From an uncultured Dehalococcoidia bacterium (GTDB lineage: Bacteria; Chloroflexota; Dehalococcoidia; SZUA-161): a stretch of 64,000 nt of DNA. Made by a program: the position numbers and the translations under genes. The stretch spans positions 6,221-70,220 of the forward strand of contig CAZGDV010000001.1 in NCBI GenBank assembly GCA_964524995.1. Direction: 5' to 3'. The notes beneath the pieces are model-generated. The model was not told where the DNA came from, did not search any database, and saw only the letters and a list, made by a program, of their open reading frames with translations. Below, piece after piece: positions 1,816 to 37,028 of the stretch (position 1 is its first letter; the number at the start of each line of letters is the position of its first letter).

Positions 1816-1836
1816 TCACCGCAAGAGGCCGGGAGC

Positions 1837-2601: not shown

Positions 2602-2619
2602 CTACCTGTCCCCGGAGGC

Positions 2620-3180: not shown

Positions 3181-3279
3181 GTTCGATCCCCCGTTTCGAG
3201 GTTGTGATCCTCCGGTGGCCTGCAGTCGCCGTGGAAGAGATCAAAGCGCCCCGCTGGCAGGACGCTGGCAAATGCCTGA

Positions 3280-5561: not shown

Positions 5562-5590
5562 TTGACAAACGAAGCCATGCGTGATAGATT
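5562..5590 (+). promoter_or_regulatory. sigma70-like promoter (TTGACA-17-TAGATT) upstream of the fmdB-like gene
   Basis: TTGACA at 5562-5567 and TAGATT at 5585-5590 with an exact 17-nt spacer, about 85 nt upstream of the TTG start at 5678. Confidence 0.4.
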
Positions 5591-5677
5591 CGAGTCGTTA
5601 GCACTCTCTCCAGATGACTGCTAGCGAGTCTTACAGGACGACCTCCGTGCCGAGGCGTCTTTTCTTTGAGGTGTGAC

Positions 5678-5968: not shown

Positions 5969-5982
5969 TCCAGGGAACACCG

Positions 5983-6451: not shown

Positions 6452-6484
6452 CGACGCTCGGCGCTTTCGACACACCCAACTCAG

Positions 6485-7351: not shown

Positions 7352-7409
7352 TCTCTCTTGCCTCTACATTCACTGTTTTTGATTCGACCAAAGGGCTGCA
7401 CCGCAGCAT

Positions 7410-8915: not shown

Positions 8916-9784
8916 GTCCGTCTTCCGGGCCTCAGCGGCGCCCAGGTCTTCGGACCAACACGCTCATAGTCAATGGACGAGTCCCGCGAGGCACATCGTG
9001 CGTTGTACTTCGCGATGGGGCGAAACAGCCGCCAGCTCGCCGGGGAAGTGATCGCCCTGGTGGGACATTTCATCTCGCAGGTAAGGCACAGCAGGCAGTT
9101 GCGCCCCCACCTCAGCCCCCCATCTCCAGCCATCGAGATGTTGCCCGTCGGGCACTGCTCAACACAAAGCCCGCAGGAGTTGCACAAATTCTTGTCCACC
9201 CGGAACAGCCGACTGTAGACGTTCGTGGCCAGCCAGCGGTTCGTCACCAGTCTCTCGATCCGGTACACGAGCGGCGCGTCAGCATCGTCATCCGACCCCG
9301 CGAAGCCACCCACCCCGGCCTGAACCGCGACTTCACGCCCGAAGGCCTCCGCCCCAGCCAACTCAGCCTCACTCGGGTGCCCCGGCGAGAACACATAACC
9401 CTCATTCAAGTAGCCCACCCACAGGTCTATGCCATAGCTTCGGAAGCCCCCGATGACTCTCGCCCCCTTGTCACTCAGCGCATGACGGACCACTCGGCCG
9501 GTTTCCCAGGCATAGGTCCCGTGCAGCAGGAACACGAAGGCCGGAAGTCCGTGGAGCTCGCCCAAGTTGCTCAAGAAGTCACTGACTATAAACGGCGGGC
9601 GGTAGTAGTAAACCGGCGTGCCAATGCCGAGCATGTCATAGCCGTCGACTTGCGGCCTGCCTCCCCGTCCGAGGCGACTCAGCTCCACCGAGTACCCTTC
9701 CCCCCGCAGACCACCAGCTATGCGCTCCGCTACCTGCGCCGTCGTCCCGCCCTGCGAGAAGTACACAATGAGGCATTTCGCCAT
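8912..9784 (-). CDS. flavodoxin-like domain fused to a 2x[4Fe-4S] ferredoxin domain
   Basis: From ATG at 9784 (GGAGGA RBS 6 nt upstream): MAKCLIVYFSQGGTTAQVAERIAGGL flavodoxin N-terminus. C-terminal CNSCGLCVEQCP and CLLCLTCEMKCP ferredoxin motifs. The track's longer start at 9937 would overlap the cytochrome gene and lacks an RBS. Confidence 0.75.
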   Translation of the reverse strand: MAKCLIVYFSQGGTTAQVAERIAGGLRGEGYSVELSRLGRGGRPQVDGYDMLGIGTPVYYYRPPFIVSDFLSNLGELHGLPAFVFLLHGTYAWETGRVVRHALSDKGARVIGGFRSYGIDLWVGYLNEGYVFSPGHPSEAELAGAEAFGREVAVQAGVGGFAGSDDDADAPLVYRIERLVTNRWLATNVYSRLFRVDKNLCNSCGLCVEQCPTGNISMAGDGGLRWGRNCLLCLTCEMKCPTRAITSPASWRLFRPIAKYNARCASRDSSIDYERVGPKTWAPLRPGRRT

Positions 9785-9848
9785 CGTACTATCCTCCGGA
9801 CAGAGTGGCGAGGATACTAGGTGAAACGGTTTCCCTCTCGCGCTACCA

Positions 9849-15823: not shown

Positions 15824-17029
15824 TTGCACATAAGACACTTGTCTCTCAGCAACTTCCGAAACTACGCCAGACTTGAGCTCGACCTGTCTCCCGGCATCTC
15901 CGTGTTCTACGGCGACAACGCCCAGGGCAAGACCAACCTCCTCGAATCCGTCTACGTGCTGGCCACCAGCAGGTCACCCCGGACAACCTCCGACGGTGAA
16001 CTCATCAGCTGGCCGGCGCTGAAAGAAGACATGCCCGTTTGCCGAATCGCCGCCGAAGTCGAGAAGGGAGCACGAACGCATACCGTCGAGATCGCCCTCA
16101 TGGCAAGAATGGGCTCCCATCAACGAGAGCACCCCGCATCGACCACGCATCTCATGCCGAAAGCTCCGACAGTGCACAAGCGCGTACGTCTGGATGGAGC
16201 ACCCAAGCGTGCGGCAGACCTGATCGGGCAGATCAAGGCCGTCGTATTCACCGTACATGACATCGATATTGTCAGCGGAGAGCCCGCCCTGCGGCGTCGC
16301 TACCTCGATATCACGATTTCGCAACTCGACAGACTATACCTGCGCCATCTCCAGCGCTACAGCAAGGTGCTATCGCAACGCAACAGACTTCTCCACCGCA
16401 TAGCCGAAGGTGAGGCCCACCAGGACGAGCTCGCATTCTGGGACAAAGAGCTTACACAGAGCGGCTCTTATCTGGTTGTGCAGCGTGCGCGGGCCGTCGC
16501 TGGGTTGGAGGAACTGGCCCAGCCGACCCATGCCGAACTCAGTGGTGAGGAAGCGGCGCTGCGAATGGTGTACGTCAGAAGTATAGGTGCAAGGGATAGC
16601 GCGGACGTCGACACCGAAGACACAATCGCCACCCTCTTCCGTGAAGCCCTGAATGCATCTCGGGCGAAGGAGCTGGCACAGAAGGCCACACTAATCGGGC
16701 CGCATCGCGACGAGTTGCGGTTCCTCTCCAACGGGATAGACGTGGGGGTCTACAGCTCCAGGGGCCAGCAACGAACGGTCGCCCTCGCTTTGAAGCTGGC
16801 CCAGGCACGGTTCATCCTGGACGAGACCGGTGAACCCCCGGTTCTACTGCTCGACGATGTGCTCTCGGAGTTGGATGCCCGGCGCCGTGCCCACCTGCTG
16901 GCTTCGATCCAGGAGTACCACCAGGTCCTGGTGACGGCCACTGAGCTGGACCACTTCGACGGTGATTTCCTGTCCAAGGCCAACGTCTGCGAGGTGAAGG
17001 ATGGGAGGGTGGAACGGGCCGGTACGTGA
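15824..17029 (+). CDS. recF: DNA replication and repair protein RecF
   Basis: 401 aa; MHIRHLSLSNFRNYARLELDLSPGISVFYGDNAQGKTNLLE (RecF N-terminus + Walker A), C-terminal LLLDDVLSELD signature. Confidence 0.9.
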   Translation: MHIRHLSLSNFRNYARLELDLSPGISVFYGDNAQGKTNLLESVYVLATSRSPRTTSDGELISWPALKEDMPVCRIAAEVEKGARTHTVEIALMARMGSHQREHPASTTHLMPKAPTVHKRVRLDGAPKRAADLIGQIKAVVFTVHDIDIVSGEPALRRRYLDITISQLDRLYLRHLQRYSKVLSQRNRLLHRIAEGEAHQDELAFWDKELTQSGSYLVVQRARAVAGLEELAQPTHAELSGEEAALRMVYVRSIGARDSADVDTEDTIATLFREALNASRAKELAQKATLIGPHRDELRFLSNGIDVGVYSSRGQQRTVALALKLAQARFILDETGEPPVLLLDDVLSELDARRRAHLLASIQEYHQVLVTATELDHFDGDFLSKANVCEVKDGRVERAGT

Positions 17030-17079: not shown

Positions 17080-20000
17080 CTAGGCGACGGCATGCAGACG
17101 CCGACCAGCGTCTCGCGAGGTGAACTTGATAATCTCGGCGAAGTTAGCTATCTTGGCCTGGTTATTGCTCTCCAGAATGCCATCGTAGGTGAGGCTGATC
17201 CATGGCTTGCCGTACATGGCGGCAAGCTGCTCCGCGATCGCGGCCACGATGCCCCCGGGCATGCAGCCATGGGGCATGACCGATATCACGCCGGCGAACG
17301 CCGGGTCCTCCAGCCACTCCAGCCCCGCTCCTATGCTCAGAACGGCCTCGCTGCCACACTTCGGCGAGAGGTATCTACCCGACATCGAGAGCAGGTCCCT
17401 GGTGCTCGGCTCCTTCCCGTCTACGTAGCCATTAAACAGGGAAGCTACCCTATGTTCATCCCACTTGAGGAACGCTTTCCTCAGATAGCCCTTGAGCACC
17501 CTCTTCAGGTCCCTGTCTCTGACACCATCCTCGATGTTGCGGTGTGTGACGTACTTGAACCACTCGGACATTGGTGAGACCACGACCTCCAGGCCAGCCT
17601 TCTCGCAATCACGGACCAGATCATTGTTGCTAAACCGGTTGGACCTCAAGAATATCTCGCCGTTGATGCCGACGATAGGTCTTCTGGGCTCTGTGGGATC
17701 GATCAGCGAAGTGAGTTTCTGGGATGCGTCCCTTAGCACGGGGTCTATCGATTGCCTCTTGCTGGTCACCTCAGTCACCCTGGCCAGGTACTCCCGGAAC
17801 ACCCTTTCCGCCGCGCCTTCTTCCTTCTCGTACGGCCTGCTTCGCCATAGCAGGCGCTCCAGGTAGTCAACACCCACGATGGCTCTCCAGGCCAGTCGTT
17901 CGAATCCCGAACCGAGGTTCCAATCATGGTAGCCGTTGTTGGAGACAGTAGTCCTGATGGGGAAATCAAAGCCCAGCCCGCGCAGTATGCGTATTTGCTC
18001 TACCGCGTACTTGCCGAAGCGGCACGGCCCGAAGGCGGCAGCCAAGAACCCCTCTACAGCCTTAGGGGTTTCTCCGCCGTTGTCGTCATACAGGTATCGC
18101 ATGAACCCGCCCAGCGTAACGCGATAGGGCAGACACTCCTTCCCCGAAGTCACCCTGTTGGCATAGAGCAGGTTCCTGTAATCCGGCTCTGGTAGCACCT
18201 GCGCGTCGACTCCGTAGGCCTGCATCGCCGCAGCCAGTACGTCAGCATGCTCGCACATCCTGGGCAGAAGCACCCTCTGGCTCTCATTGAATCTGGTGTA
18301 CGCGTACCTGCGTATATCCCTTCCGTCCACACCCGACTCGACGATCCTATCTGATCCGGCATACTGCTTGATCGTGTCGACGAAAGCCTCCAACCTGGTT
18401 ACTATCCCTGCCTCCGCCGCATGCTCGTCGATCTCCAGTTGGCCCAACGGCTTGTCGCCCATTATGTCCTCAACGATATTGAGCACGAACGAGTTCGGGC
18501 CGCAGCCGAAGTTGGTCACCACCAGGCCGAAAAGCTGCGGATCCTTGGCCACGATAGCCGCGGCAGCTATTTGCTTTGCCTCATTGAACCAGTACGGGCG
18601 ATCCGAGTAGTCCCTGACGTTGACAGTGGACAGGGGCAGGAAGTCCAGCGGAATCGGCGTCACGCCCAACTGGGCGAGCTTCTCGGCAATCCCGAGGTTG
18701 GCCCCCGAATCCTGCGACATGTACGACCGGGCGAAGATCACGACCCCGAGTTGTTCGCTCTCGCGAAGCTTTGCCATAGTCTGTCGGCCCAGCTCCGCCT
18801 CGGCCTCCAGGAAATCCCGATGCGCCTTCAGCGCAGCGAAGGCAGCCCTTTCACCCCGTCTTTTCGAGAAACCCATCCTGACGGCAGCTCGGGTAAGGTT
18901 CTCGATCACGTCTTCGTCGCCGTGGCTGAAGTCGATCATTGGTACGACGAGCTTCCTGCCCAGACCCAGCGCCTGACGCACTATGAACGGCGATGCTTGC
19001 ACGAGCGGGCAGGCATACTTCTGGTCCTCGTCGCCTTCCTGCCGACCCATCCTCAGCACACTGGGGAAGAGAATAAAGTCCGTGTGCTCCTTGAGGCTTT
19101 CGCCATGCCCGTGAACGAGCTTGATCGGGAAGCAACTGTCCGTGTAGCTGAGTTCGACCGACTGGTGTATTATCTGGTTGTTGGTCCTGGTCGACAGCAC
19201 AGCCTTGGCCCCGAGAGCGTTCAGGAACCCCAAGAGCATCGGAGCATAGTCATACACCACCAGCGACCTGGGAATGCCGACAGTCGGCCCACCGCCCGCG
19301 CCCGACTCGTACCCGCCGAACAGCAGCTTCTCGCGGTCGTCGAACGGCGTCGACACCCTCTCACGGCCCACAGTACTGTCGAACAGATCACACCTGCTCC
19401 CGTAGAACGTAGGTGACTCGCCCGGGATTTCCATTCTCGTTATTGTGCAGTTGTTGTCACATTTCTTGCAGATGAAAGTCGACAGCTTGTGATGGCTGTC
19501 AATGACCCTCTGGAAGCCCTTGAAACTCGACGGCTGGCCAGCCATTTCCTCCTTGGCCAACAAGGCAACCCCGATCGCGCCCGTCACCTCCTTGTGCTCG
19601 GCAACCCGGACTCTCTTGCCCTCCAGCGCAGCCTTGAACGCAGACACCACCGCATCGTTGTAGAACACGGCGCCGGTCAGGATTACGCTTTCGCCCAGTC
19701 TCCGCGTTCCGAGTACCTTTGACAGGTAGTTGGCGGCAATGGAGTTCGACAGGCTCGCGGTTATCACCTCCAGCGGCACACCCTCCTGCTGCGCCGAGGC
19801 AACCGACTGGCCCATGAACGCAGCGCAGCGCGAGCCCAGATCGATAGTATGCGGGGCGTCGAAGGCCAGCCGCGCAAACTCGCCGTCGTGCACCCGGACG
19901 CCGAGCTGCTCCGCCAGCTCGTCGATGAAGCTGCCGGTCCCGGCAGCACAGGCCTTGTTCATCTGGTAGTCGACGACAACGCCGTTGCGCTTGATAACGA

Positions 20001-21264
20001 GCTTCGAGTCCTGGCCGCCTATCTCTATGATATCGGCATTGGGGTCTACTTCGGCCGCCGCCCTCGTCTGTGCTGTGATCTCATTCCTGATGACATCCGC
20101 GCCGATGAAGCTGCCAACGAGATACCTGCCCGAACCGGTTACGCCGACACCAGCTATCTTGGGCTTATCCCCGACATCCTCCAGGAGATTGCGGAATACT
20201 TCCTTGATCGCTTCGACCGGCCTACCTGCCGTCATCAGGTAGTTCTTGGCCATCACCGTCTTGCCGCTCTCATCCAGAATCACGGCCTTGGTACTGGTCG
20301 ACCCGATGTCCACGCCCAGGTAGCCTACGAACGGCCCCTCCAGTTCAGGACGACTCCAGAAGTCCCGCTGCTCAACCCGCTCCAGCCTCGGCATCTTGAA
20401 ATAGCGCTGCCTGCTGTCCTCATACGGCAGTACCTTCACCTTCGATTGACGCCCTGACCCGGCGGCAAGCTGCGCACAGCCTATGGCCTCGGTGTACAGG
20501 AAATCCTCCGGCACGACGGCATGAACCGGATGCCCGTTCCGAGATGAGAGGGCCTCGTCCAGGGCTCTCGACATGGCGGCGTTCGCAGCAACTCCACCCA
20601 CGAAATATACCGGCTCTTCGAAGGCACCCCTCTTGAGTGAAACGACCATCCGGGCGATGCTCTCGCTGAGCGCGTACAGCATGTCCGACATGGGTACGCC
20701 CTTCTGCTGCAGATGAATGAGATCGCTCTTGGCAAACACGCTGCAGCGAGCGGCTATGCGAGGCGGGTTCCCAGCGCATTCAAGTGCCAGTCGGGCGAAG
20801 TCGTCCAAGCTGACGCCAATACGGTAGGCCTGCTGTTCCAGGAAACGTCCCGTCCCCGCCGCACAAAGGGGGTTGGACACCACCTGCCAAGGCTTCCGGA
20901 GCCCGTCCTCCAGCGATATGACATACGAACTCTGCCCGCCAATCTGGATTATGCTCCTGGCATCCGCATGCTGCCTGAGCAGACCTGAGGCAATCGTGAG
21001 GGAGCTGCTGTACTCGGCCCAATCGAGCTCCTTAGGTATGACCCCGCTGCCGGAGCCCGACAAGCCGGCCGTGGATATGTCGTCCAACCGGCAGGTCTCG
21101 GACAACCTGCCGAGAATGGCAACGGTGGCGTCTCTGGGGCTCGACGTGATTCTCTCACTGTCGAGAATGAGGACGTCGCCGTCACCGAGGAGAGCAGCCT
21201 TGACCCATACCGACCCGATATCCAAGCCAAGGGAGTATCTCATATTGAGCCAATTGTAGCACAA
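17080..21264 (-). CDS. fusion protein: two BcrA/BadF/HgdC-type ATPase (activase) domains + HgdA/HgdB-like 2-hydroxyacyl-CoA-dehydratase-like domains; plasmalogen synthase PlsAR-like
   Basis: 1394 aa. N-terminal ASKHA ATPase repeats (LGLDIGSVWVKAAL.. and LGVDIGSTSTKAVILDE..), a central Cys cluster (CKKCDNNC..C), and a long C-terminal region of the 2-hydroxyglutaryl-CoA dehydratase D-component type. The natural start may be the in-frame MRYSLGLDIGS at 21243. Confidence 0.75.
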   Translation of the reverse strand: MCYNWLNMRYSLGLDIGSVWVKAALLGDGDVLILDSERITSSPRDATVAILGRLSETCRLDDISTAGLSGSGSGVIPKELDWAEYSSSLTIASGLLRQHADARSIIQIGGQSSYVISLEDGLRKPWQVVSNPLCAAGTGRFLEQQAYRIGVSLDDFARLALECAGNPPRIAARCSVFAKSDLIHLQQKGVPMSDMLYALSESIARMVVSLKRGAFEEPVYFVGGVAANAAMSRALDEALSSRNGHPVHAVVPEDFLYTEAIGCAQLAAGSGRQSKVKVLPYEDSRQRYFKMPRLERVEQRDFWSRPELEGPFVGYLGVDIGSTSTKAVILDESGKTVMAKNYLMTAGRPVEAIKEVFRNLLEDVGDKPKIAGVGVTGSGRYLVGSFIGADVIRNEITAQTRAAAEVDPNADIIEIGGQDSKLVIKRNGVVVDYQMNKACAAGTGSFIDELAEQLGVRVHDGEFARLAFDAPHTIDLGSRCAAFMGQSVASAQQEGVPLEVITASLSNSIAANYLSKVLGTRRLGESVILTGAVFYNDAVVSAFKAALEGKRVRVAEHKEVTGAIGVALLAKEEMAGQPSSFKGFQRVIDSHHKLSTFICKKCDNNCTITRMEIPGESPTFYGSRCDLFDSTVGRERVSTPFDDREKLLFGGYESGAGGGPTVGIPRSLVVYDYAPMLLGFLNALGAKAVLSTRTNNQIIHQSVELSYTDSCFPIKLVHGHGESLKEHTDFILFPSVLRMGRQEGDEDQKYACPLVQASPFIVRQALGLGRKLVVPMIDFSHGDEDVIENLTRAAVRMGFSKRRGERAAFAALKAHRDFLEAEAELGRQTMAKLRESEQLGVVIFARSYMSQDSGANLGIAEKLAQLGVTPIPLDFLPLSTVNVRDYSDRPYWFNEAKQIAAAAIVAKDPQLFGLVVTNFGCGPNSFVLNIVEDIMGDKPLGQLEIDEHAAEAGIVTRLEAFVDTIKQYAGSDRIVESGVDGRDIRRYAYTRFNESQRVLLPRMCEHADVLAAAMQAYGVDAQVLPEPDYRNLLYANRVTSGKECLPYRVTLGGFMRYLYDDNGGETPKAVEGFLAAAFGPCRFGKYAVEQIRILRGLGFDFPIRTTVSNNGYHDWNLGSGFERLAWRAIVGVDYLERLLWRSRPYEKEEGAAERVFREYLARVTEVTSKRQSIDPVLRDASQKLTSLIDPTEPRRPIVGINGEIFLRSNRFSNNDLVRDCEKAGLEVVVSPMSEWFKYVTHRNIEDGVRDRDLKRVLKGYLRKAFLKWDEHRVASLFNGYVDGKEPSTRDLLSMSGRYLSPKCGSEAVLSIGAGLEWLEDPAFAGVISVMPHGCMPGGIVAAIAEQLAAMYGKPWISLTYDGILESNNQAKIANFAEIIKFTSRDAGRRLHAVA

Positions 21265-22059
21265 GGCAATGTCATAGTGAAGCCCATCACGGACATCTTA
21301 ATAGCGGTAAATGCAGGTTGTCACCACTTATCGGCGCTGAGTAAGACTTGGTGGATAATCGAAGCAGCAGGAGGAGAAAACGACTCGAATGTAACCGATA
21401 CCGCTGAGGATTCATGCCCCGAGGGGGCTCGCAGCTAGCCTCCACCCACATACGTCGGCACGGGTGGATCGGACTCGCCGGCGGTCACCACGCCCACGAG
21501 ACCACCTATCAACGAGGCGAGCAGGATGCAGATGAACAGCGCCCTTACCAAGACGTACATCTTCCCTTCAAGCACTATTTATCCTCCCATGTCTTCATAG
21601 CTGATAAATGAGTTCATCGTCATCGGCCTCTGTCAATGAAGTCCCGGGGTCAGCCCTGAGGGCCCTCGAGATCCGGCTGGATATCGACCTGGGGAGGGGC
21701 AGTCTCCTCGCTCATATGGTGCTCACACATGGCGACAAGGCAGCACAAAGCAGCAAGGCGACAGTCAACGCTGCAATATTCGCTGTACCACCTCCTGATC
21801 TCACCGAGACATCCCGGAATGCTTATCTCTCTCGACATCAGGAGCACCCCCAGCAAATCACTTTCTCTACTGTATCCTTGCCGGACTCACGGACTTGACG
21901 AAAGACCACATCTGAAGCGAACCTTGCCGGACAGTCCACCAGACCCTCAAGACGGCGGACTGTCAGTTTCTAACACGTTTCGCGCGTTTTGTCAATACCC
22001 TGAGAAAAAATAAAACGGTGGACGGCGCGGACTGCCTCCACGCCTTCCGCTCCGTCCGG

Positions 22060-22088
22060 TTGACAGTCGCCGCAGTCGATGGTATAAG
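22060..22088 (+). promoter_or_regulatory. near-consensus sigma70-like promoter (TTGACA-17-TATAAG)
   Basis: TTGACA 22060-22065, 17-nt spacer, TATAAG 22083-22088, inside an otherwise gene-poor 1.3 kb spacer; oriented toward the small membrane-protein ORF at 22242. Confidence 0.35.
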
Positions 22089-22241
22089 AGCATCAATAAC
22101 GCCCCGCCCGCCACACATCGAGCCGACCACGATGGCGTTCCTAAGTATGCCGCGCCTACCTGCAGAGCAACCGGTGCAGATGCTCAGAAAGGGGGATGCC
22201 GTATGTTCCGATTTATTGCGATCACGAGGAAGAGATCGCGC

Positions 22242-22445
22242 ATGGCGCGAAGACGGGCGGCGTCCAGAGGAATTTTAGGCCGAACCGGCTTCTTCGCCTT
22301 CGCCGGACTGGCTGTTGCGGCGCTCTTCGGACCTCAGGTAGCACTCGCCCCAATAGTCCTACCATTGGCGATGCTGGCCGCGGCGTTCGCTGTCATATGT
22401 GTGGCGTTTGTCATCACGATACCGATCGCCTTCGGCCTCTGGTAG
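22242..22445 (+). CDS. small (67 aa) two-helix membrane protein, hypothetical
   Basis: ATG at 22242 preceded by GAGGAAGAG 7 nt upstream; MARRRAASRGILGRTGFFAFAGLAVAALFGPQVALAPIVLPLAMLAAAFAVICVAFVITIPIAFGLW = basic N-terminus plus two hydrophobic helices; no homology assignable. Confidence 0.3.
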   Translation: MARRRAASRGILGRTGFFAFAGLAVAALFGPQVALAPIVLPLAMLAAAFAVICVAFVITIPIAFGLW

Positions 22446-22592
22446 TACGCGCCTCGTCGGCTCACGATACTGCAGCCATATTGTCGGGAGAAGGCCAGGA
22501 GCCAGACACAGCAAGTCAATTAGCATGACAAGGGGGCAGACTCCAAGAGTAGAGCCTGCCCCCTCCAACTACCCCAAGCCAACTATACGAGC

Positions 22593-23009
22593 CTACGGAC
22601 TCCGCTTGCTTACGCGAGCGATCGCGGGCCTGAATTCCTCCTTGACGATCTCCATGGCCTCATCGGTCGTGAACCACCCGTATCGGTCGTTCTCCCAGTC
22701 CAGCACGACATTGTCATCCCGACCCAGGTAAGTTGCCGCGTAGCAGCCTACCACCTTGGCCTTGGACTTATACGTGATCTCGCCAACATCGATTACGGAC
22801 TCATAGGCATCGGGTTTCAGGTGAAGCTCCTCAACCACGGCACGCCTGGCGGCGTCCAGCGGTGTCTCCCCTTCCTCGATCTCCTCCTTGGGAGGCATCC
22901 AGGGCGCATTCCGGTTGTGCCACCCCGAGGGATGAACAAGCAGCACCTTGCCCTCTCGATTGACCAGGAACATAGCGCCCGAACGCTTCAAACCCACCCC
23001 CTCATCCAT
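22593..23009 (-). CDS. NUDIX hydrolase
   Basis: 138 aa; Nudix box GETPLDAARRAVVEELHL (GX5EX7REUXEEXGU). Confidence 0.85.
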   Translation of the reverse strand: MDEGVGLKRSGAMFLVNREGKVLLVHPSGWHNRNAPWMPPKEEIEEGETPLDAARRAVVEELHLKPDAYESVIDVGEITYKSKAKVVGCYAATYLGRDDNVVLDWENDRYGWFTTDEAMEIVKEEFRPAIARVSKRSP

Positions 23010-23461: not shown

Positions 23462-24307
23462 ATGGCGCAGCGAACGCAAGTCCTCAAGGACGGCCTCGTC
23501 TTCCCCGAGTGCCCGCGCTGGCATCAGGACAGGCTGTGGTTCTCGAATATACACGCGCACCGCGTCATGAGCATAGACATGCTGGGCAACAGCGAGACCA
23601 TCGTCGAGGTGCCGACCCAACCCACCGGTCTGGGCTGGCTTCCTGACGACAGGCTGCTCCTGGTATCCGCTACGGATCGCCGGCTGCTGCGCCTCGAACC
23701 CGATGGCCTTGTGGAGCATGCCGACCTGTGGGAACTGGCATCGTCACACTGCAATGACATGGTCGTGGACCGTCTCGGGAGAGCCTACGTGGGCAACTTC
23801 GGTTTCGACTTCCTCAGCAATGAGCCCTTCGCACCGGGTGAAATCGTACTCGTGAACCCGGATGGCGCCGCCCGCGTGGCGGCCGAGGGCCTTGCGTTCC
23901 CGAACGGCAGCGTAATCACGCCGGACGGGCGGATGCTCGTAGTAGCGGAGACGCTCGCCTCCCGGCTCACCGCCTATGATATCGAACCGGACGGCTCGCT
24001 GTCGGGGCGACGCGTCTGGGCTGAGGTGGATGAACTGATGCCGGACGGCATCTGTCTGGATGCCGAGGGCGCGATCTGGATTGCCTCGCCCCTCGGGGGT
24101 GAGGTGCTGCGTGTTCGTGAGGGTGGGAAGATAGAGGAGACTGTGAAGGTCTCGACACAGGCCTACGCGTGTATGCTGGGGGGCCCGGACCGCCGCACGC
24201 TCTTCGTACTCACGGCCGAGACGCTGGACCCGGACGAGGCAAGAGCGAAGAGGAGCGGACACATCGAGACGCTCCGTGTGGAGGTGCCGGGCGCTGGTCT
24301 CCCCTGA
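23462..24307 (+). CDS. SMP-30/gluconolactonase/LRE-family beta-propeller protein
   Basis: 281 aa; repeated propeller-blade segments (..GLGWLPDDRLLLVSATDRRLLRLEPDG.., ..PNGSVITPDGRMLVVAETLASRLTAYDIEPDGSL.., ..PDGICLDAEGAIWIAS..) characteristic of the SGL family. Confidence 0.8.
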   Translation: MAQRTQVLKDGLVFPECPRWHQDRLWFSNIHAHRVMSIDMLGNSETIVEVPTQPTGLGWLPDDRLLLVSATDRRLLRLEPDGLVEHADLWELASSHCNDMVVDRLGRAYVGNFGFDFLSNEPFAPGEIVLVNPDGAARVAAEGLAFPNGSVITPDGRMLVVAETLASRLTAYDIEPDGSLSGRRVWAEVDELMPDGICLDAEGAIWIASPLGGEVLRVREGGKIEETVKVSTQAYACMLGGPDRRTLFVLTAETLDPDEARAKRSGHIETLRVEVPGAGLP

Positions 24308-24326: not shown

Positions 24327-24956
24327 TTAGCACTTGGCGTGCCTGCGCCTCTTGATCACGAAGACGCCACCCAGGCCGAGCAAGGCAATCGAGAACAGCA
24401 CAATCGTGGCCGCTTCCGGCACGACCCTGAATCCCTCTTTTCCAAGGGCAACCGCGTCGAGTCCGTCACTCGCTGAATCGTAGATGCCGGCCCCGCCGCA
24501 GTCCTTGCCCACGTCATCAGCCACGATCTCCCAGTAGGTGTTCTGGTACCCTTCCGCGGGTATCTGCCACAGCTCTACAGGCCCGATGGTGCCAAGCACG
24601 CTCGACTTGACATGCCTCGGCGCTGCGCCGCTGGGATCAAGCGAAGGGTCGAGTATGTCGCCCTCGGCGACATGCGCTCCTTCCGAATAGGGCTGTATGT
24701 ACAGGTCGTAGCCCCAGCACGGCTTGAACCCGTATCCCACGACGGCCACGGTGTCTCCGGGCTCGAATTCGTCGACCTCGATCACCAGGCTATCCCTGAT
24801 GCCGAGTATCGATATCAGCTGCCGTTCGCAACACTGTTGCGAGAGGTCTCCGTCGCCCTGATCGTCACCCGACGACGCCCAGGCGATACCCGACACCCCG
24901 AGCATCATGCCGGCAACTAACATAACGACCAGCGAGATCAGAGCTATCTTCTTCAT
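24327..24956 (-). CDS. secreted Cys-containing protein with PEP-CTERM-like C-terminal anchor (VPEA + TM helix + KRRRH)
   Basis: 209 aa; N-terminal signal peptide MKKIALISLVVMLVAGMMLGVSGIAWA; C-terminus ..VVPEAATIVLFSIALLGLGGVFVIKRRRHAKC resembles exosortase/archaeosortase sorting signals; lies in the lower-GC island. Confidence 0.55.
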   Translation of the reverse strand: MKKIALISLVVMLVAGMMLGVSGIAWASSGDDQGDGDLSQQCCERQLISILGIRDSLVIEVDEFEPGDTVAVVGYGFKPCWGYDLYIQPYSEGAHVAEGDILDPSLDPSGAAPRHVKSSVLGTIGPVELWQIPAEGYQNTYWEIVADDVGKDCGGAGIYDSASDGLDAVALGKEGFRVVPEAATIVLFSIALLGLGGVFVIKRRRHAKC

Positions 24957-25200
24957 CGTATTCCACCTCCGTGAGGCGTTCCAGTTTCTTGTCGTCCGCG
25001 ATTATACTCCGAAAAGTATAGTCCTGCAAGAGCGTTATGTCGCGTATTTCTATCCAGCTTCTCGACACCACTCGCTTGCGCATATCCCGCTGCGGACGCA
25101 CGCGCGAGGTCCACATGACCACGCAGACCGCTACGGTGTGTTGAGGGGCTTGAGCAAGTTGGCTCCGCCATAATGCTCGGTGCCGAACGGCCGTGTAGAC

Positions 25201-26055
25201 TCAGATCACCCCGCGTCGTATGTACTCGCAGTTAGGTCCGGGCAGGGTGGGCACAGCGAGCCAGTATTCGAGTTCCGCCCTCAGGTCTTGTAGCGTGCGC
25301 GCTAGGTTCTCGTATTCATTTGCGTGATCTTGGTGATGATCTAGGATTGGGGCAGTCCTGCCACTTTCCATGTCTCTTCGGAGAGCTTCGACTCCATCAG
25401 CGAGCCGGCCCAGTGCCGCACGGCATGGAACCTCGTCGGGCCCCACGACGAGGTTCAAGTATCCTCCGCCCGGTTGTCGCCGCAGGAGCACCTCCCCATT
25501 CCACGAGATTCTTGCGGAGTCATACAGTACCATGAACCGATGCACGCCGGACACCGCTCCACTCAGCTCCTCGTATAGCAGCCTGACCGATGCGGGCAGC
25601 AACGCCTCGACGTCAGTAGGCCGGACACTAGTGGGGCATTCATACACTCCCAGACCACTCAGACGCACGGCCAAGTCCAGCGTCTCCTGCGTGAGTGCGC
25701 GCTTGTGGGTCCAGTACTCGACGACCTGCTTGAGGTAGTCCTCATACCTCAGCATCGCTTCAGGTATGTGGCATTTGAGGTCTCGGAACAGCGTATGCGA
25801 TTCGCACTTGTACGGTTCCAGCCTGACCTGGGGCACCGTCGTCACCCATCCATCGACCTCTGAAATCGTGTAAGGCACCGATGGATGGTCGGGAAGGCAC
25901 AACTCCTTGAGGCATGACCGTATGGCCTGCTTGACTTCACCCCAGTGGACGCTCTCAGCCTCTCTCAAGCGCGGTCTATCTCGGTGAGTGCGGTAGGTGG
26001 CGTACAAGGAGGCCAAGAGGGCAAGAGAAGACAACACGATTGCTGCAACAGCCAT
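25201..26055 (-). CDS. hypothetical N-terminally membrane-anchored protein
   Basis: 284 aa; single N-terminal TM helix (MAVAAIVLSSLALLASLYATY) then soluble domain with no recognisable motif; in the island between the Abi-like gene and the PEP-CTERM-like gene. Confidence 0.45.
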   Translation of the reverse strand: MAVAAIVLSSLALLASLYATYRTHRDRPRLREAESVHWGEVKQAIRSCLKELCLPDHPSVPYTISEVDGWVTTVPQVRLEPYKCESHTLFRDLKCHIPEAMLRYEDYLKQVVEYWTHKRALTQETLDLAVRLSGLGVYECPTSVRPTDVEALLPASVRLLYEELSGAVSGVHRFMVLYDSARISWNGEVLLRRQPGGGYLNLVVGPDEVPCRAALGRLADGVEALRRDMESGRTAPILDHHQDHANEYENLARTLQDLRAELEYWLAVPTLPGPNCEYIRRGVI

Positions 26056-26196
26056 ATTACCTTGTCAAGTGCGGCAGACGTCACTGCCCAATGTGCGACC
26101 ATGGGCCCGTAGCCACGATCGTGTCAGCACTACCTTCGATCGATTGGACAGCGTTGCCAGTGTACTTCTCATTTATCCGAATTGGCCCTCAGTGGC

Positions 26197-26937
26197 CTAA
26201 GCTTCCGAGGAACCGATGCGCCCATTCGACCCTTGCGTGCTCTCAAGCTTCGATTGCTCGTCTCGATGGAGCTTCTCTCCTATCGCGTCGATGATGTACT
26301 GCATTCCGATTTGGAGCGGCAAGCCCTTGCTATGCGACGTTCCATTATAGGCGAGGGAGTACCTGTCCAAGACTTCATCTATGACCTCGATGATGCAGTC
26401 AAGCTCGGCCACCTTGACAGGGTACTGCTTGGCAACTTCGATTCCGCTCAGCACGTGGTCTATGTCGACATGGGCTAGTGCCTTGTTTCTCCACACCCTC
26501 AAGTTCTTCGCAGGCAGTCTCGCAAGCAGCTGCCTATCCTTGGCAACGCTTCGCAAAGTCACCCGCATAGGGACTCGTGGCGTGCCACCATTCCGATAGG
26601 CAGGATGCTGGCGCATTCGCCTCTGGAAGGCTCGGCTCTGAAACGCGGGGCGGTTCTCGTCGACGAAGTCGAGTAACCACCACATACTTAAGTCCTTCTT
26701 CCCCTTGGACAACAACCTCGTCAGCCGCATAACTGCCTGAAGGAAGTGTCCATACCATGTCAACTCAAAGAAGGCAGGTGCCGTGTTCAATTCGTGTGCG
26801 TGGGAAGCTCTCGCACTATGCAGGAACTTGCATATGGACCAATGCCAGTAGGCGTTGTTGAGTTCCTCTCTCAGGTGGTCATGGCACTTGACGAACTTGG
26901 CTTCTTCAGCCGTAGGCTCGTAGTCATGTTCAACCAT
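26197..26937 (-). CDS. Abi_2 (AbiD/AbiF-like) / HEPN-motif protein, putative abortive-infection effector
   Basis: 246 aa; Trp/Lys-rich; contains RNKALAH (R-x5-H HEPN-type motif of the RNxxAH kind found in Abi_2 proteins); located in the lower-GC island next to mazEF. Confidence 0.5.
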   Translation of the reverse strand: MVEHDYEPTAEEAKFVKCHDHLREELNNAYWHWSICKFLHSARASHAHELNTAPAFFELTWYGHFLQAVMRLTRLLSKGKKDLSMWWLLDFVDENRPAFQSRAFQRRMRQHPAYRNGGTPRVPMRVTLRSVAKDRQLLARLPAKNLRVWRNKALAHVDIDHVLSGIEVAKQYPVKVAELDCIIEVIDEVLDRYSLAYNGTSHSKGLPLQIGMQYIIDAIGEKLHRDEQSKLESTQGSNGRIGSSEA

Positions 26938-27196
26938 TTGCCGTTCTCACCACAATCAATGCATCATCCCAACGACGTTCTGACGTTGCGGTCCTGCCCG
27001 AAGCCCATCAAGCTCCCCCAGCGCGGGACAATCGTATGCTAGTGGCTGGCGGCAGTGGTGTCAAGCCGTGCTCAGAGTCGTGGACGCCCCCTCCGCCCCG
27101 CGATGATGCGCTCGACGGCGCATGGGGGGCTGAGGGGGCTTGACAGACACCCTCCAGAGTAGTATCTTCATTGTAGATACAATACGGAGGCTAAAT

Positions 27197-27439
27197 ATGA
27201 GAACCAGGGTCCAGAAATGGGGCAACAGCCTGGCTTTGCGCATACCTAAGTCCTTCGCCAACGAAGTGGGGCTTCAAAGGGAAACATCTGTCGAGGTCTC
27301 GCTAGATGACGGGAAGCTTGTCATCACTCCGGTGTCAGAACCAAAGCTGACTCTGGAACAACTCCTGGCAGAGGTTACCGAAGACAATCTGCATCACGAA
27401 GTCGATACCGGCACCGCCGTAGGAAATGAAGCATGGTAA
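27197..27439 (+). CDS. mazE: MazE/PemI (AbrB/SpoVT-fold) antitoxin
   Basis: ATG at 27197 with GGAGG RBS; MRTRVQKWGNSLALRIPKSFANEVGL is the classic MazE/PemI swapped-hairpin N-terminus; the track's longer 27140 start is rejected. Confidence 0.8.
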   Translation: MRTRVQKWGNSLALRIPKSFANEVGLQRETSVEVSLDDGKLVITPVSEPKLTLEQLLAEVTEDNLHHEVDTGTAVGNEAW

Positions 27440-27780
27440 GTCCGCGCGCTTACGTTCCCCAGCGTGGGGATGTGGTTTGGATTACGCTGAATCCACAGGC
27501 GGGGCACGAGCAAGCCGGACGCCGCCCGGCTGTGGTGCTTTCACCAACAAGCTATAACGGCAAGACCGGACTTGCTATCCTTTGCCCGATAACCAGCCAG
27601 GTCAAGGGCTACCCGTTCGAGGTGCTCCTTCCCGAGGGGTTGCCGGTGAACGGGGCAATCCTCTCAGACCAGGTCAAGAGCTTAGACTGGGGCGCGCGAA
27701 AGTCAGAGTTGACATGCAAGTTACCGGATGAAGTCATGTCCGAGGTGCTTGAAAAGCTGGGTACGCTGCTATCGCAATGA
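27433..27780 (+). CDS. mazF: MazF/PemK-family endoribonuclease toxin
   Basis: 115 aa; PQRGDVVWITLNPQAGHEQAGRRPAVVLS...LAILCPITSQVKGYPFEV matches the PemK/MazF fold; 7-nt overlap with mazE. Confidence 0.85.
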   Translation: MVSPRAYVPQRGDVVWITLNPQAGHEQAGRRPAVVLSPTSYNGKTGLAILCPITSQVKGYPFEVLLPEGLPVNGAILSDQVKSLDWGARKSELTCKLPDEVMSEVLEKLGTLLSQ

Positions 27781-27968
27781 AGAAGAACTCAGCTTACCTT
27801 GCTTCCTGCGATTGAAGAAGTAGAGTCCGAAGCTGATCCTGTCCCCGACGCCTTCCCCGTCCCCGCCCTCCACGCCCCGACGACGCATTTGACGGCGAAA
27901 TGGGGAAGCGGCGAGAGCCGATTTTCGGTATAGGCCCGTGGTCTAGACGAAGCTAAGGCGCGGGAAAT

Positions 27969-27993
27969 CCCGTGGTCAAGAGCCACTTTTTTG
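27969..27993 (+). terminator. candidate intrinsic terminator after mazEF
   Basis: GTGGTC-AAGA-GCCAC imperfect hairpin at 27973-27986 followed by TTTTTT (27987-27992). Confidence 0.35.
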
Positions 27994-28034
27994 CGGTCAT
28001 CACGCCGTCAAAATCCCCGAAATAGATTCAAAAG

Positions 28035-28106
28035 TGGCAGCGGGAGGATTCGAACCTCCAACCCCGGGCTTATGAGTCCCATGCTCTGCCTTTGAGCTAC
28101 GCTGCC
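28035..28106 (-). tRNA. tRNA-Met (anticodon CAT; could alternatively be tRNA-Ile2/lysidine type), no encoded CCA
   Basis: Reverse strand folds as acceptor GGCAGCG/CGCUGCC, D-arm GCUC..GAGC, anticodon loop CUCAUAA, T-arm GGAGG-UUCGAAU-CCUCC, discriminator A. G1-C72 rules out a bacterial initiator. Confidence 0.8.
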
Positions 28107-30260: not shown

Positions 30261-30998
30261 TCACGCCTTGTGTTCGATGACGAAACGCGCTCTCTTGCGG
30301 CGCTGCGCAACGTCGCCGTACGATCTCTGCCTGGCGAGATAGTCCATCGCCTTCTTCGTGTCGCTGGCGACCTTGGCCTTGTCGCTGTTGGTCAATCTGT
30401 ACTTGAACAGCCAGTATGTGAACTCCTGCAACTCGTTCAAGGCAACAGTCTCCTGATGACGGTACGCCCGCTCCTCCCTGAACTGCCTCAAGAGCGCATC
30501 CTGCGCCAGGCCATACAGTCTGATGTAGCCGTCGGCCTCGTCCCCCTCGCCCAGGCGCAGCAGCTGGGCATTCCTCTCCTTGCATATCTCCTCTTCGACC
30601 GCCGCGAGCAGGAACCTCTCCGCTATGATTCCGTACAGGAAGTTCAAGTAGGCATGGTACTTCGCCGTGCCAATGAGACCCTTGAACTCATCGTCGCTGA
30701 CGTCCACCGGTAAACGTCCGTCGAACACCAGGTCGTTGTACTCCTGTTCGGGAACGGCATCCTTGACTTCGCCGACCAGGCGTTCTGCAAGCAGCAGCCA
30801 ATCGAACGCCTCCCCATCTATTAGATAGCGGTAGTGCCTGCCACCTGCCGTCTCCTCCGGGCTTGCCCACAGTCCTATCGCCTCGAGCAGGGCCGTATGC
30901 CATGCTTTGCCACTCACCACACCCTCCCTGAGGTGGCCCATCGCCTCCTGGTCGGCAACCCTCGCCCAGCCCTTCTTCTCCGAACCGGCTCCTGCCAT
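30261..30998 (-). CDS. hypothetical protein
   Basis: 245 aa, good coding statistics and placement, no recognisable motif. Confidence 0.5.
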   Translation of the reverse strand: MAGAGSEKKGWARVADQEAMGHLREGVVSGKAWHTALLEAIGLWASPEETAGGRHYRYLIDGEAFDWLLLAERLVGEVKDAVPEQEYNDLVFDGRLPVDVSDDEFKGLIGTAKYHAYLNFLYGIIAERFLLAAVEEEICKERNAQLLRLGEGDEADGYIRLYGLAQDALLRQFREERAYRHQETVALNELQEFTYWLFKYRLTNSDKAKVASDTKKAMDYLARQRSYGDVAQRRKRARFVIEHKA

Positions 30999-31007: not shown

Positions 31008-32726
31008 CTACCTCCGCTTCAACCAGCGCAGGAACTCGTCAACCGGCCTGGTGTTCAATACGTCCGATGCCCGGCACCAACCCCGCCGCGCGACTCCCAC
31101 GCCGAATCGCATGAGATCGAGGTGATCGACGCTGTGGGAATCCGTACCGATTACCAGGCTCACTCCGACCTCTCCGGCCCTCTTCGCCTGCGTATCCCTC
31201 AGATCAAGCCTGTCCGGCATCGCATTGATCTCCAGGGCTGTGTTCGTTCTCACCGAGGCGCGGAATACCTCCTCCAGATCGATTTCAACCGGCTCCCGCG
31301 TCCCGATGAGCCTGCACGTAGGATGAGCGAGGACATGCACGCGCGGGTTCTCGATGGCGCGAATTACTCTCCTCGTCATTTTCTCCGAATCTTGCTGCAT
31401 TGACGAGTGAACTGCGGCAACCACTATGTCAAGCTCTTCAAGAATATCATCAGGGTAATCGAGCGCACCATCCGCGCGTATGTCTAACTCGATCCCGGCG
31501 AGGAGGCGTATGCGGGATAACTTCGCGTCAACGTCTCTTATCTCGGCGATCTGTTCTCTCAGCCGCTCAACGCTCAGGCCGTGCGCGATGCCCCTCCCTG
31601 CTGAATGGTCCGTGATAGCGAGATATTCGTAGCCCAAGCCCTGCGCCGCCATCGCCATCGCCTCGATAGAATCGTGGCCGTCGCTCCAATCGGTGTGCAC
31701 GTGCAGGTCCCCTTTGATATCGGCCAACTCGATCAGTTCGGGCAACTGCCGCTTCTGGGCTGCCTCGATCTCCCCTTGCGCCTCGCGTAACTCGGGGGGA
31801 ATCAACTGCAGCCCCAACCGTTCGTAGAACGCCGCCTCGTCGGTGTACTTCTCCACCTCGCCCGTATCCAAGACAGTGATCCCGTACTCGCTCAGGCTTA
31901 GCCCCCGGTGTAGCGCCATCTCCCTGAGCAGTACGTTGTGCTCCTTCGAGCCTGTGAAGTGCTGGAGAAGCGAGCCGTAGCTCTCGTGATCGACCATCCT
32001 CAGGTCGACCTGTATCCCGTTGGCGGCGATGACGCTCGCCTTCGTCGGGCCCTTGGCCAACACCTCCTCGACCATCGGCAGATGCAAGAAGGCCTCCACT
32101 ATGCGAGCTGGCTCGTCCGCGGTACCCATGATATCGATATCGCCTACAGTCTCCCTGGCCCGCCGCAGGCTTCCCGCCGGCTCCAGGTGGCGAACGCCCA
32201 GCTGATCACGCAAGGCGCTGACTATCTCATCCACCAAGGGTTGCGCAGTCCCCAAAAGTATCCGAACGTCCTTGTGACGGTGCCTCCGAAGCTGCCTGAG
32301 GATGTTATCGGCGGTCTTCTCCCCCAAACCCTGCAGTGATGCGAACCTGCCATCGACGATCGCCTTCTCCAGGTCGTCGATGCTGTTCACACCCAACTCC
32401 TGATGGGCGCGTGCGGCAATCCTCGGGCCCACTCCGGGTACGTCCATCAAGCTCCTGATGCCATCGGGGAACTCGCTGCGAAGCTTCTCGTAGACATCGA
32501 GACGACCCGTAGACAGGAGTTCCGATATCTTCTTGGCTATGGCTTCGCCGACGCCGGGGATCTCGCGGAGCCTGCCCTCGTTCATGACTTGCTCCAAGTC
32601 GACGGACAGGCCTTCAATGGTGCGTGCTGCGCGTTCGTAGGCCTTGATCTTGAAGCGGTTCTCGCCCTTCAACTCCAGAAGATCAGCCAGGTCCTGGAAT
32701 ACCTGAGCTACCGCTGCGTTGTCCAC
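31008..32726 (-). CDS. polX: DNA polymerase X family protein with C-terminal PHP phosphoesterase domain
   Basis: 572 aa; N-terminal HhH/pol-beta-like region (IPGVGEAIAKKISELL, GVGPRIAAR) and C-terminal PHP His/Asp motifs (HVHTDWSDGHDS, LAITDHS). Confidence 0.85.
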   Translation of the reverse strand: MDNAAVAQVFQDLADLLELKGENRFKIKAYERAARTIEGLSVDLEQVMNEGRLREIPGVGEAIAKKISELLSTGRLDVYEKLRSEFPDGIRSLMDVPGVGPRIAARAHQELGVNSIDDLEKAIVDGRFASLQGLGEKTADNILRQLRRHRHKDVRILLGTAQPLVDEIVSALRDQLGVRHLEPAGSLRRARETVGDIDIMGTADEPARIVEAFLHLPMVEEVLAKGPTKASVIAANGIQVDLRMVDHESYGSLLQHFTGSKEHNVLLREMALHRGLSLSEYGITVLDTGEVEKYTDEAAFYERLGLQLIPPELREAQGEIEAAQKRQLPELIELADIKGDLHVHTDWSDGHDSIEAMAMAAQGLGYEYLAITDHSAGRGIAHGLSVERLREQIAEIRDVDAKLSRIRLLAGIELDIRADGALDYPDDILEELDIVVAAVHSSMQQDSEKMTRRVIRAIENPRVHVLAHPTCRLIGTREPVEIDLEEVFRASVRTNTALEINAMPDRLDLRDTQAKRAGEVGVSLVIGTDSHSVDHLDLMRFGVGVARRGWCRASDVLNTRPVDEFLRWLKRR

Positions 32727-36440: not shown

Positions 36441-37028
36441 TCATCTCCTCGCTTCGCGGAGCACCTTCCTGACGCCCGGCTCAATATCTTGTGAGGTGTC
36501 GACCACAATGTGATTGCGTCCAATTCGCTCCACCCGACCCCTCATCGCATTGTACACACCCAGGTCGGCATCCGAGCTGTCCGGGCGGCTGCTGTCTCCG
36601 GCACGAACGGCCAAGCGCTCCTCCACCAGCTCCGGCGGAGCCTTCACCCACACCAGTGTGAGCCTCGCCCCGGCACGGTCTGCAATCTTGTACAGGCGCT
36701 CCCGATGGGTCTCAATCAGGTTGGTGGCATCGAGGATTACCGACAAGCCCCGGCTCAACAGCTCTTCAATCAACACATGACAGGCGTCGAACAGGCGATT
36801 GCTCTCACTCGCATTGTACCGGGGTGACCGAATGAGCCGTTTCCGTAGCGCGTCGCTCTCCAGGACGACGCTCGGCAGGTCCTCCGCCAGCCTTCGGCTG
36901 AAGTGCGACTTCCCTGTACCGGGAAGGCCGCTGACAACTATCAGGACCGGACGTGCCTCGGGCTCGGGGAGTTCCCCGAGCCCGTCTTTCAGTGTCTGTA
37001 CGTCCTGTTCGACTCTAGTCGGTCCCAT
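36441..37028 (-). CDS. P-loop kinase-like ATPase (AAA_33 / zeta-toxin-like fold), function unknown
   Basis: 195 aa; Walker A VSGLPGTGKSHFS and Walker B-like VILDATN. Confidence 0.55.
   Translation of the reverse strand: MGPTRVEQDVQTLKDGLGELPEPEARPVLIVVSGLPGTGKSHFSRRLAEDLPSVVLESDALRKRLIRSPRYNASESNRLFDACHVLIEELLSRGLSVILDATNLIETHRERLYKIADRAGARLTLVWVKAPPELVEERLAVRAGDSSRPDSSDADLGVYNAMRGRVERIGRNHIVVDTSQDIEPGVRKVLREARR

Follow-up and report, generated by a model that had tools for sequence, protein, structure and literature searches.

The described systems closest to the locus reported here are tRNA-adjacent integrative islands with a tyrosine integrase, toxin-antitoxin pairs of the MazEF (ChpA) type, the lactococcal AbiU system (AbiU1 plus AbiU2), and effectors with a SLATT domain. 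From what is known of the family, MazEF would work as a type II toxin-antitoxin system in which a labile MazE represses the operon and neutralizes MazF, an endoribonuclease. HEPN proteins of the AbiU2 type are presumed RNases that would arrest translation upon phage infection, i.e., abortive infection. The lactococcal partner of AbiU2, AbiU1, is a ParB/DUF262-type protein (PMC3632139), and the partners of AbiU2 given in a survey of HEPN proteins are Sel1-repeat proteins, restriction-modification (R-M) operons, and Bxe_C0808 HEPN proteins (PMC3710099). Here, we analyzed a cassette of 2.8 kb located beside a tRNA-Met gene in a 64,000-nucleotide stretch of contig CAZGDV010000001.1 (referred to below as the window), which carries mazE and mazF, the gene of an AbiU2-type HEPN protein of 246 amino acids (aa), and the gene of a 284-aa membrane protein that we call TM284. 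The best matches of the CoaBC protein of the source genome are all from metagenome-assembled genomes (MAGs) of Dehalococcoidia, with 72% identity to the closest representative in GTDB. With a probability of about 0.65, we read positions 25102 to 27923 as what now fills a replaceable slot that begins about 110 nucleotides (nt) downstream of tRNA-Met, this occupant being a small, decayed integrative islet made of three independent conflict modules.

The evidence for such a slot comes mainly from a sister lineage, L111, which shows 86 to 89% nucleotide identity to the window in the flanks of the cassette. This lineage was traced via P0013, a cluster-mate (at least 90% identity) of the 209-aa protein encoded on the far side of the cassette from the tRNA gene. 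The 3′ end of tRNA-Met faces the cassette, and the region below position 28034 is thus its 3′ side. The features of the locus are as follows.

24327 to 24956, minus strand: open reading frame (ORF) of a PEP-CTERM-like protein, 209 aa, conserved flank
25102 to 27923, no strand: variable cassette, 2822 bp, GC content 57.2%, delimited by blastn of the flanks against L111
25201 to 26055, minus strand: ORF of the TM284 gene, 284 aa
26197 to 26937, minus strand: ORF of the HEPN_AbiU2 gene, 246 aa
26938 to 27196, no strand: intergenic region from which the AbiU2 gene and mazE diverge, subjected to a consensus scan
27197 to 27439, plus strand: ORF of mazE, 80 aa
27433 to 27780, plus strand: ORF of mazF, 115 aa
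27924 to 27986, minus strand: 5′ remnant of an integrase gene, its first ~19 codons (19-codon part at 27930 to 27986), from DNA alignment and BLASTP
27987 to 28033, no strand: conserved spacer running from the tRNA 3′ end to the position of the integrase start codon of L111, from blastn and alignment
28034 to 28106, minus strand: tRNA-Met, anticodon CAT, from ARAGORN and Rfam RF00005 (65.3 bits)

All of the ORFs that an earlier note on this DNA had placed 3′ of tRNA-Met, mazEF included, were thus recovered, as was the tRNA gene itself. On the tRNA side, positions 1 to 1188 of L111 align with 29109 to 27924 of the window at 89.5% identity (blastn), a match that covers the 3′ part of coaBC, tRNA-Met, and about 110 nt beyond it. 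On the other side, L111 3877 to 6240 aligns with window 25101 to 22687 at 86.3% identity (blastn) and covers the 209-aa gene, an SGL lactonase-like gene, p78, and a NUDIX gene. The tRNA-Met gene is the same in the two lineages save for a 1-nt indel at its extreme 5′ end, and the first base past the tRNA differs. Lying between these shared flanks in L111 are genes for a 301-aa tyrosine integrase and for a 462-aa protein with a formylglycine-generating enzyme (FGE)-sulfatase domain, plus two small ORFs, whereas the window has TM284, AbiU2, mazE, and mazF instead. Because the flanks are shared and the cargo differs, the variable cassette is taken as 25102 to 27923. The left limit of the cassette, as drawn by the L111 flank match, is thus at about position 25101 and not at 24327, where the island of 24327 to 28106 in the earlier note had been made to begin. 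Collinearity between the window and L010, the nearest relative in GTDB, extends for about 11 kb, from ~39.6 kb to coaBC and tRNA-Met, and synteny stops exactly there; what follows the tRNA in L010 is a gene resembling CoA-disulfide reductase and another of 393 aa, neither of which is found in the window. No cassette gene was detected in the other 79 loci kept from a coaBC scan. The proposal of an island-type insertion site next to the tRNA is therefore borne out by the different cargo and the integrase of L111 between the same flanks and by the end of L010 synteny after the tRNA. The cassette genes are not shared by all relatives, as they would be in a core genome: L111, L010, and the other 79 loci all differ. 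The L111 cargo itself (1126 to 3835) has a native-like GC content of 61.9%; its two small ORFs encode 62 and 53 aa, and its 462-aa protein combines an N-terminal transmembrane (TM) helix, a Pro/Thr-rich linker, and the FGE-sulfatase (formylglycine-generating enzyme-like) domain.

The tyrosine integrase is the first gene after the tRNA in L111, where it is intact (PF00589, E value of 5.8e-24). DNA of the window can be aligned with L111 up to position 27924, where homology ends, and the remnant left on the window side matches the N-terminus of the L111 integrase with 11 identities in 19 residues (BLASTP, E value of 3e-5). No full integrase gene is present in the window, only this 19-codon remnant. 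The earlier statement that the island has no integrase is thus right for a complete gene and wrong for the remnant at 27930 to 27986 on the minus strand, which is retained while the rest of the gene is gone. The remnant provides direct sequence evidence for an integrase-bearing element that would formerly have resided at this position and then been truncated or overwritten. Since it is present, "decayed island" is a fair description of the locus, as had been suggested.

Base composition points in the same direction. The GC content is 57.5% for the region 24327 to 28033 and 57.2% for the cassette, compared to 59.7% for the whole window, with a minimum at the 1-kb scale of 54.4% (26001 to 27000). 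At the 1-, 2-, and 3.7-kb scales alike, nowhere in the 64 kb is the GC content lower than here, about 3 standard deviations under the mean each time, and the cassette ranks among the lowest 1.8% of sliding windows within the 64 kb. The drop in GC that had been noticed by eye is therefore real and the lowest in the window, but its description as "low 50s" was overstated, as only the 1-kb minimum, the AbiU2 gene (54.4%), and mazE (52.7%) come that low. The GC content at third codon positions (GC3) ranges from 0.58 to 0.68 in the four cassette genes, with 0.68 for AbiU2 and 0.67 for TM284, against 0.75 to 0.79 in the flanking genes, among them the 209-aa gene (0.76).

Several observations nevertheless weigh against the islet reading. 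A few other window genes have GC3 values of 0.63 to 0.67 and thus overlap with the cassette genes; the tetranucleotide distance of the cassette reaches only the top 8%; and, overall, the shift in composition is modest. Composition by itself is hence suggestive of acquisition, not decisive. A direct repeat of the tRNA 3′ end, which had been proposed as a check, was not found: searches with 22- to 23-mers allowing up to 3 mismatches gave no second copy in the window or in L111, and the 3′ 16-mer had one other match in the window, with exactly 3 mismatches, at 8768 to 8783 on the opposite strand, ~19 kb off and at chance level. No 9-mers are shared at the cassette junctions, and no att-type direct repeats were detected in the window or in L111. 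Given this lack of att-type repeats, the cargo could have been exchanged by site-specific integration followed by decay or, equally, by homologous recombination between the conserved flanks. All population contigs with an identical CoaBC, TM284, or 209-aa protein show one layout at more than 99.7% identity, with zero single nucleotide polymorphisms (SNPs) between 23747 and 29826; the cassette is fixed and monomorphic, and no presence/absence polymorphism of it was seen within the species across all of these contigs. The lack of att repeats and of an intact integrase in the window, the modest compositional shift, and the fixed, SNP-free state of the cassette would all be compatible with a cassette that was never acquired, in which case the arrangement of the window would be ancestral, L111 and L010 would have lost or replaced the genes independently, and the GC dip would stem from short, weakly expressed toxin genes. 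We regard this as very improbable, as the truncated 5′ end of the integrase gene argues that an integrase-bearing element came first and was then partly overwritten, and the cassette genes occur in no other fetched Dehalococcoidia locus. Moreover, the MazF protein is 56 to 60% identical to plasmid MazF proteins of other phyla, and the genomes carrying TM284 homologues have GC contents of 42 to 56%.

The population contigs also differ by SNP clusters outside the cassette, at 23710 to 23746 (in the SGL gene), 32073 to 32109, 30816 to 30837, and 30897 to 30907, with, e.g., 6 and 8 SNPs per 37 bp, while the remainder of ~20 kb is identical. These clusters look like short patches of recombination or gene conversion between co-existing strains. 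Several Logan contigs stop at 23661, beside one of the clusters. A deletion variant was considered for the Logan contig breaks at 28059/28088 and 23661 and was rejected, as the breaks are explained by tRNA k-mers and by the SNP cluster in the SGL gene, respectively.

Among the cassette genes, the identity of mazEF as a MazE/MazF pair is unambiguous from sequence comparison, in agreement with the earlier call. MazF matches PF02452 with 95.9 bits (cut-off of 23.1, E value of 2e-27) and passes the cut-off of the NCBIfam MazF equivalog NF007386 (127.9 bits versus 120), and it matches the MazF structure 7d28 in the PDB with an E value of 1.2e-38. It is predicted to be an endoribonuclease toxin of the PemK/MazF family, and the plasmid proteins to which it is 56 to 60% identical are from Proteobacteria and Firmicutes. 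MazE, with a predicted AbrB/SpoVT fold, matches PF04014 with 45.9 bits (cut-off of 24.7, E value of 5e-12) and PDB 7d2n chain E with an E value of 9e-22; its score against the NCBIfam MazE equivalog, 58 bits, is under the cut-off of 113. The mazE gene overlaps mazF by 7 nt and is preceded at 6 nt by a GGAGG Shine-Dalgarno sequence. The pair is oriented divergently from the AbiU2 gene, and the intergenic region between them holds sigma-70-like sites at 27064 to 27036 on the minus strand and 27140 to 27168 on the plus strand, which are consensus matches only.

The 246-aa protein had been labeled Abi_2-like. This label proved wrong: the protein matches PF18734 (HEPN_AbiU2) with 66.1 bits against a cut-off of 26.8 and an E value of 3.9e-18, over residues 14 to 203 and model positions 3 to 178 of 193, and this was the only Pfam family reported at an E value of 0.1 or less, with no Abi_2 match. 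No PDB entry matched its sequence, a word-based search for homologues returned only the query, and tblastn found none on plasmids. In view of its family membership and a candidate R-x5-H motif, we predict that it is a solitary AbiU2-family HEPN protein and an RNase of the abortive-infection type. No DUF262/ParB gene was found among the gene calls within ±10 kb.

The third component, TM284, gave no match to Pfam, NCBIfam, PADLOC, or PHROG. Its family is very rare: a HMMER search of 1.84 billion cluster representatives yielded 10 proteins at an E value of 1e-3 or less, seven of them, the query included, at 1e-10 or less, and the homologues are 25 to 33% identical to the query. Two further loci of the family, from Joint Genome Institute (JGI) metagenomes, came from a search with a six-sequence subset of the alignment. 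A word-indexed search returned only the query, tblastn found no homologue on plasmids, and a profile search added nothing new. TM284 has a single N-terminal hydrophobic helix (residues 2 to 21), as expected of the single-pass membrane protein that it had been taken for, followed by five basic residues in the stretch RTHRDRPRLR. Because these positive charges follow the helix, the positive-inside rule predicts that the bulk of the protein lies in the cytoplasm (C-in), and one homologue with two TM helices is consistent with this placement. The AlphaFold 2 (AF2) model is confident (pLDDT of 87.9, pTM of 0.80) and suggests an alpha/beta domain, for which Foldseek found no match in the PDB or BFVD; a PDB sequence search with the family profile gave nothing below an E value of 0.18. 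The family alignment shows a basic RPLRxRSIExHSxxLK segment, an E-x3-LF-x-DL-x2-H block, two invariant tyrosines, and a C-terminal VPILPxxC. Its invariant residues include H37, K42, E85, D92, H96, Y107, Y114, and C276, and no recognizable catalytic motif was found in it.

Some candidate assignments of TM284 were rejected. A hidden HEPN domain received a probability of 0.2% in an hhalign comparison with AbiU2, and the R-x4-H in its "RDLKCH" sequence is not a HEPN motif, as the position is R, K, E, or Q in the family and is not conserved. SLATT_1 scored 13 to 18 bits (best 17.6, cut-off of 26.3) in two to three homologues, over the hydrophobic helix only, and had no match in the window protein. 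One homologue, P0010 (L102, 8001 to 8603), matched the eukaryotic BTG/Tob family with 30.3 bits (cut-off of 23, E value of 3.6e-7) over the TM helix and the conserved N-terminal region; no other member did, and the match is probably spurious.

Besides the window, five genomic contexts of TM284 homologues were informative, the other contigs being too short. A GmrSD-like type IV restriction protein (PDC-M55C, E value of 1e-27) on one side and a candidate PDC-M30 pair (M30B/A, DUF5131 plus its partner, E values of 3e-97 and 3e-56) on the other flank the homologue in L104, and an 1101-aa type IIG R-M enzyme (1233 bits) is found farther along. In L100 (2743 to 4014), a Dehalococcoidia MAG (GCA_046759965.1), it is preceded by the nuclease C-terminus of an HmaA-like helicase and by a 364-aa uncharacterized protein, and an HmaB/DUF1156 methylase (HmaB E value of 4e-18) starts 6 nt after its stop codon; an Hma-like system may enclose this homologue. 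Overall, defense-type genes stand beside the TM284 family in three of the five other contexts, or four of six with the window, and the partner differs each time. No gene of the AbiU2/PF18734 family was found in the five other contexts. The L104 region (829 to 10667) is a dense defense island in its own right, in which the partner of DUF5131 is TcmP-like and which also holds a 134-aa uncharacterized protein and, upstream, a second type IIG fragment.

How the cassette genes relate to one another, and whether TM284 belongs to defense at all, has to be judged against these contexts. The proposal of a two-gene abortive-infection module made up of the 246-aa and 284-aa proteins, with TM284 acting, e.g., as a sensor, regulator, or antitoxin of the HEPN RNase, draws on the adjacency of the two genes on the same strand, on their common place in the swapped cassette and similar GC3 values (0.68 and 0.67), and on the frequent need of HEPN toxins for a partner, as generally known from the HEPN survey (PMC3710099). 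The 141-nt gap between the AbiU2 and TM284 genes has no terminator-like site, and the two may be transcribed together in this genome, which tells against fully independent modules. We nonetheless consider this proposal unlikely: an AbiU2 gene accompanies TM284 in none of the five other informative contexts, TM284 is not among the partners described for AbiU2 in published work (Sel1-repeat proteins, R-M operons, and Bxe_C0808 HEPN proteins), the profiles of TM284 and AbiU2 are unrelated, and the two ORFs are neither overlapping nor tightly coupled. With partners that change and never include AbiU2, a fixed AbiU2-TM284 module is not supported, and the contexts fit a self-contained TM284 gene that hitch-hikes in defense islands. 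The divergent orientation of mazEF, the gaps of 141 nt between AbiU2 and TM284 and of 244 nt between TM284 and the 209-aa gene, and the absence of AbiU2 beside TM284 homologues are our reasons for treating the modules as independent, so that mazEF, the solitary AbiU2 HEPN protein, and TM284 would act separately and not as one system.

A stronger challenge concerns TM284 itself, which could be unrelated to defense, i.e., a membrane protein restricted to certain lineages or a passenger of mobile elements (e.g., with a regulatory, housekeeping, or superinfection-exclusion-like role) that resides in variable regions; we give this somewhat less than an even chance. Two of the six contexts have no recognizable defense gene: in L105 the neighbors are uncharacterized proteins of 594 aa and 106 aa, and in L096 they look metabolic or housekeeping. 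In L102, the divergent neighbor is a weak, partial DruA-like match (E value of 4e-5). Eight of nine family members have no PADLOC match, the ninth has a weak Cas4 match (E value of 5.5e-4), and, as described above, the family lacks a recognizable catalytic motif. Six informative contexts thus leave the defense association of TM284 thinly supported. Observations on the other proteins also count against the conflict-module reading. None of the five proteins of the region matched a PADLOC model in the search that had been proposed, and PHROGs gave matches for MazE and MazF and a weak one for AbiU2 only. The candidate motif of the AbiU2 protein, R150-NKALA-H156, fits the HEPN pattern R-x4-6-H, and its single-sequence AF2 model, which is helical, is unreliable (pLDDT of 39.3). 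On the other side, the homologues in L104 and L100 are embedded among strong defense matches, the window copy lies beside AbiU2 and MazEF, and four defense contexts in six are, by our rough estimate, far above what a random gene would show. The earlier idea that the 284-aa protein sits where novel defense genes hide is therefore mildly supported by three of the five other contexts and not by the remaining two. In the reading of an islet with three conflict modules, TM284 would be a helix-tethered membrane protein with a cytoplasmic alpha/beta domain, the product of an accessory or defense gene that moves alone between defense islands; we would guess, with low confidence, at abortive infection of the single-gene type, with TM284 as its membrane-anchored sensor/effector. 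That TM284 would moreover be the founder of an undescribed family of single-gene anti-phage (abortive-infection) proteins, with a fold absent from the PDB and BFVD, in uncultured and probably Chloroflexota-type lineages, and moving alone between defense islands, is a tentative suggestion to which we give rather low odds.

The 209-aa protein had been counted as an envelope protein of the island. It has at least 90% amino acid identity to its counterpart in L111 (P0013), with the same SGL, p78, and NUDIX neighbors. Because it is conserved in the L111 flank and its GC3 value is native-like (0.76), we place its gene outside the island, and the 209-aa, SGL lactonase-like, p78, and NUDIX genes all belong to the native flank. 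Its description as a secreted PEP-CTERM-like protein holds in part: its N-terminus has a signal-like helix and its C-terminus a VPEAAT-TM-KRRR tail, but the scores are below every curated cut-off (PF07589, 15.5 versus 20.7 bits; TIGR02595, 15.4 versus 16). No tail of this type was found in the other ORFs of the window.

Farther along this flank, a 1.3-kb stretch (21265 to 22590) between a BcrAD/BadFG-type gene and the NUDIX gene shows a GC dip to ~56% and no convincing ORF, and an Rfam scan of the gene-poor stretch 21200 to 22650 gave nothing at an E value of 0.1 or less. An 80-aa ORF at 22203 to 22445, which is among the gene calls of one assembly (L002), resembles a small membrane protein. 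The BcrAD/BadFG-type gene is a 1394-aa ORF (17080 to 21264, minus strand; called as 1387 aa) with two BcrAD/BadFG-type ATPase domains fused to DUF2229; it looks like the activator of an enzyme of the 2-hydroxyacyl-CoA-dehydratase or benzoyl-CoA-reductase type and is unrelated to the cassette. Positions 15824 to 17029 on the plus strand encode a 401-aa AAA_15/AAA_23 ATPase that matches the PADLOC model mad3 (a MADS component) over nearly its full length with an E value of 6e-32, with weaker PtuA, GajA, and AriA matches at its N-terminus. Its neighbor is a T2SSE-type ATPase, no other MADS component is evident beside it, and it may be an orphan or uncharacterized defense ATPase, ~8 kb from the cassette. 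On the other side of the tRNA, a 195-aa Zeta_toxin/AAA_33-like P-loop kinase (36441 to 37028, minus strand) has a weak PADLOC VakA match; it is syntenic in L010, the 72% relative, and is likely a core gene rather than a toxin.

Taken together, the locus offers a small and clear-cut case of cargo being replaced at a hotspot next to a tRNA gene in the Dehalococcoidia, a poorly studied and uncultured group, with two close lineages that have common flanks and different cargo and with an integrase caught half-deleted. The MazEF and AbiU2 components are ordinary members of known toxin or defense families. The candidate is thereby narrowed from five genes to a 2.8-kb cassette with one unknown gene, TM284, the sole truly uncharacterized gene of the cassette, for which the status of candidate new defense gene is reasonable but thinly supported. 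Its confident predicted structure without a known analogue and its recurrent defense neighborhoods make it a cheap and well-defined target for heterologous phage-challenge screens.

Compared to known systems, TM284 resembles the SLATT-domain effectors in being anchored to the membrane by its N-terminus, in having a helical domain in the cytoplasm, and in its defense-island neighborhoods, but it has one TM helix and not two and no SMODS/SLOG partner, and the likeness is probably compositional. The HEPN protein resembles lactococcal AbiU and PF18734 in its 66-bit model match and in a candidate R-x5-H motif of the kind expected of active HEPN RNases. It differs from that system in having no AbiU1 partner, no Sel1-repeat, R-M, or Bxe_C0808 neighbor, and no match to a PADLOC Abi model, and from the AbiU2 family in its divergent sequence, with no relative in a word-based search. 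The mazEF pair agrees with ChpA-type MazEF in the equivalog cut-off passed by MazF, the matches to solved MazF and MazE structures, the antitoxin-toxin order, and the 7-nt overlap, and is distinguished by its position in a tRNA-adjacent cassette of a Chloroflexota chromosome. As for the cassette as a whole, its integrase is cut to 19 codons, no attL or attR was detected, it measures only 2.8 kb, and it is fixed in the sampled population, whereas it shares with tRNA-adjacent integrative islands carrying a tyrosine integrase a slot 3′ of the tRNA, an integrase as the first gene in L111, cargo that varies between conserved flanks, and a lower GC content.

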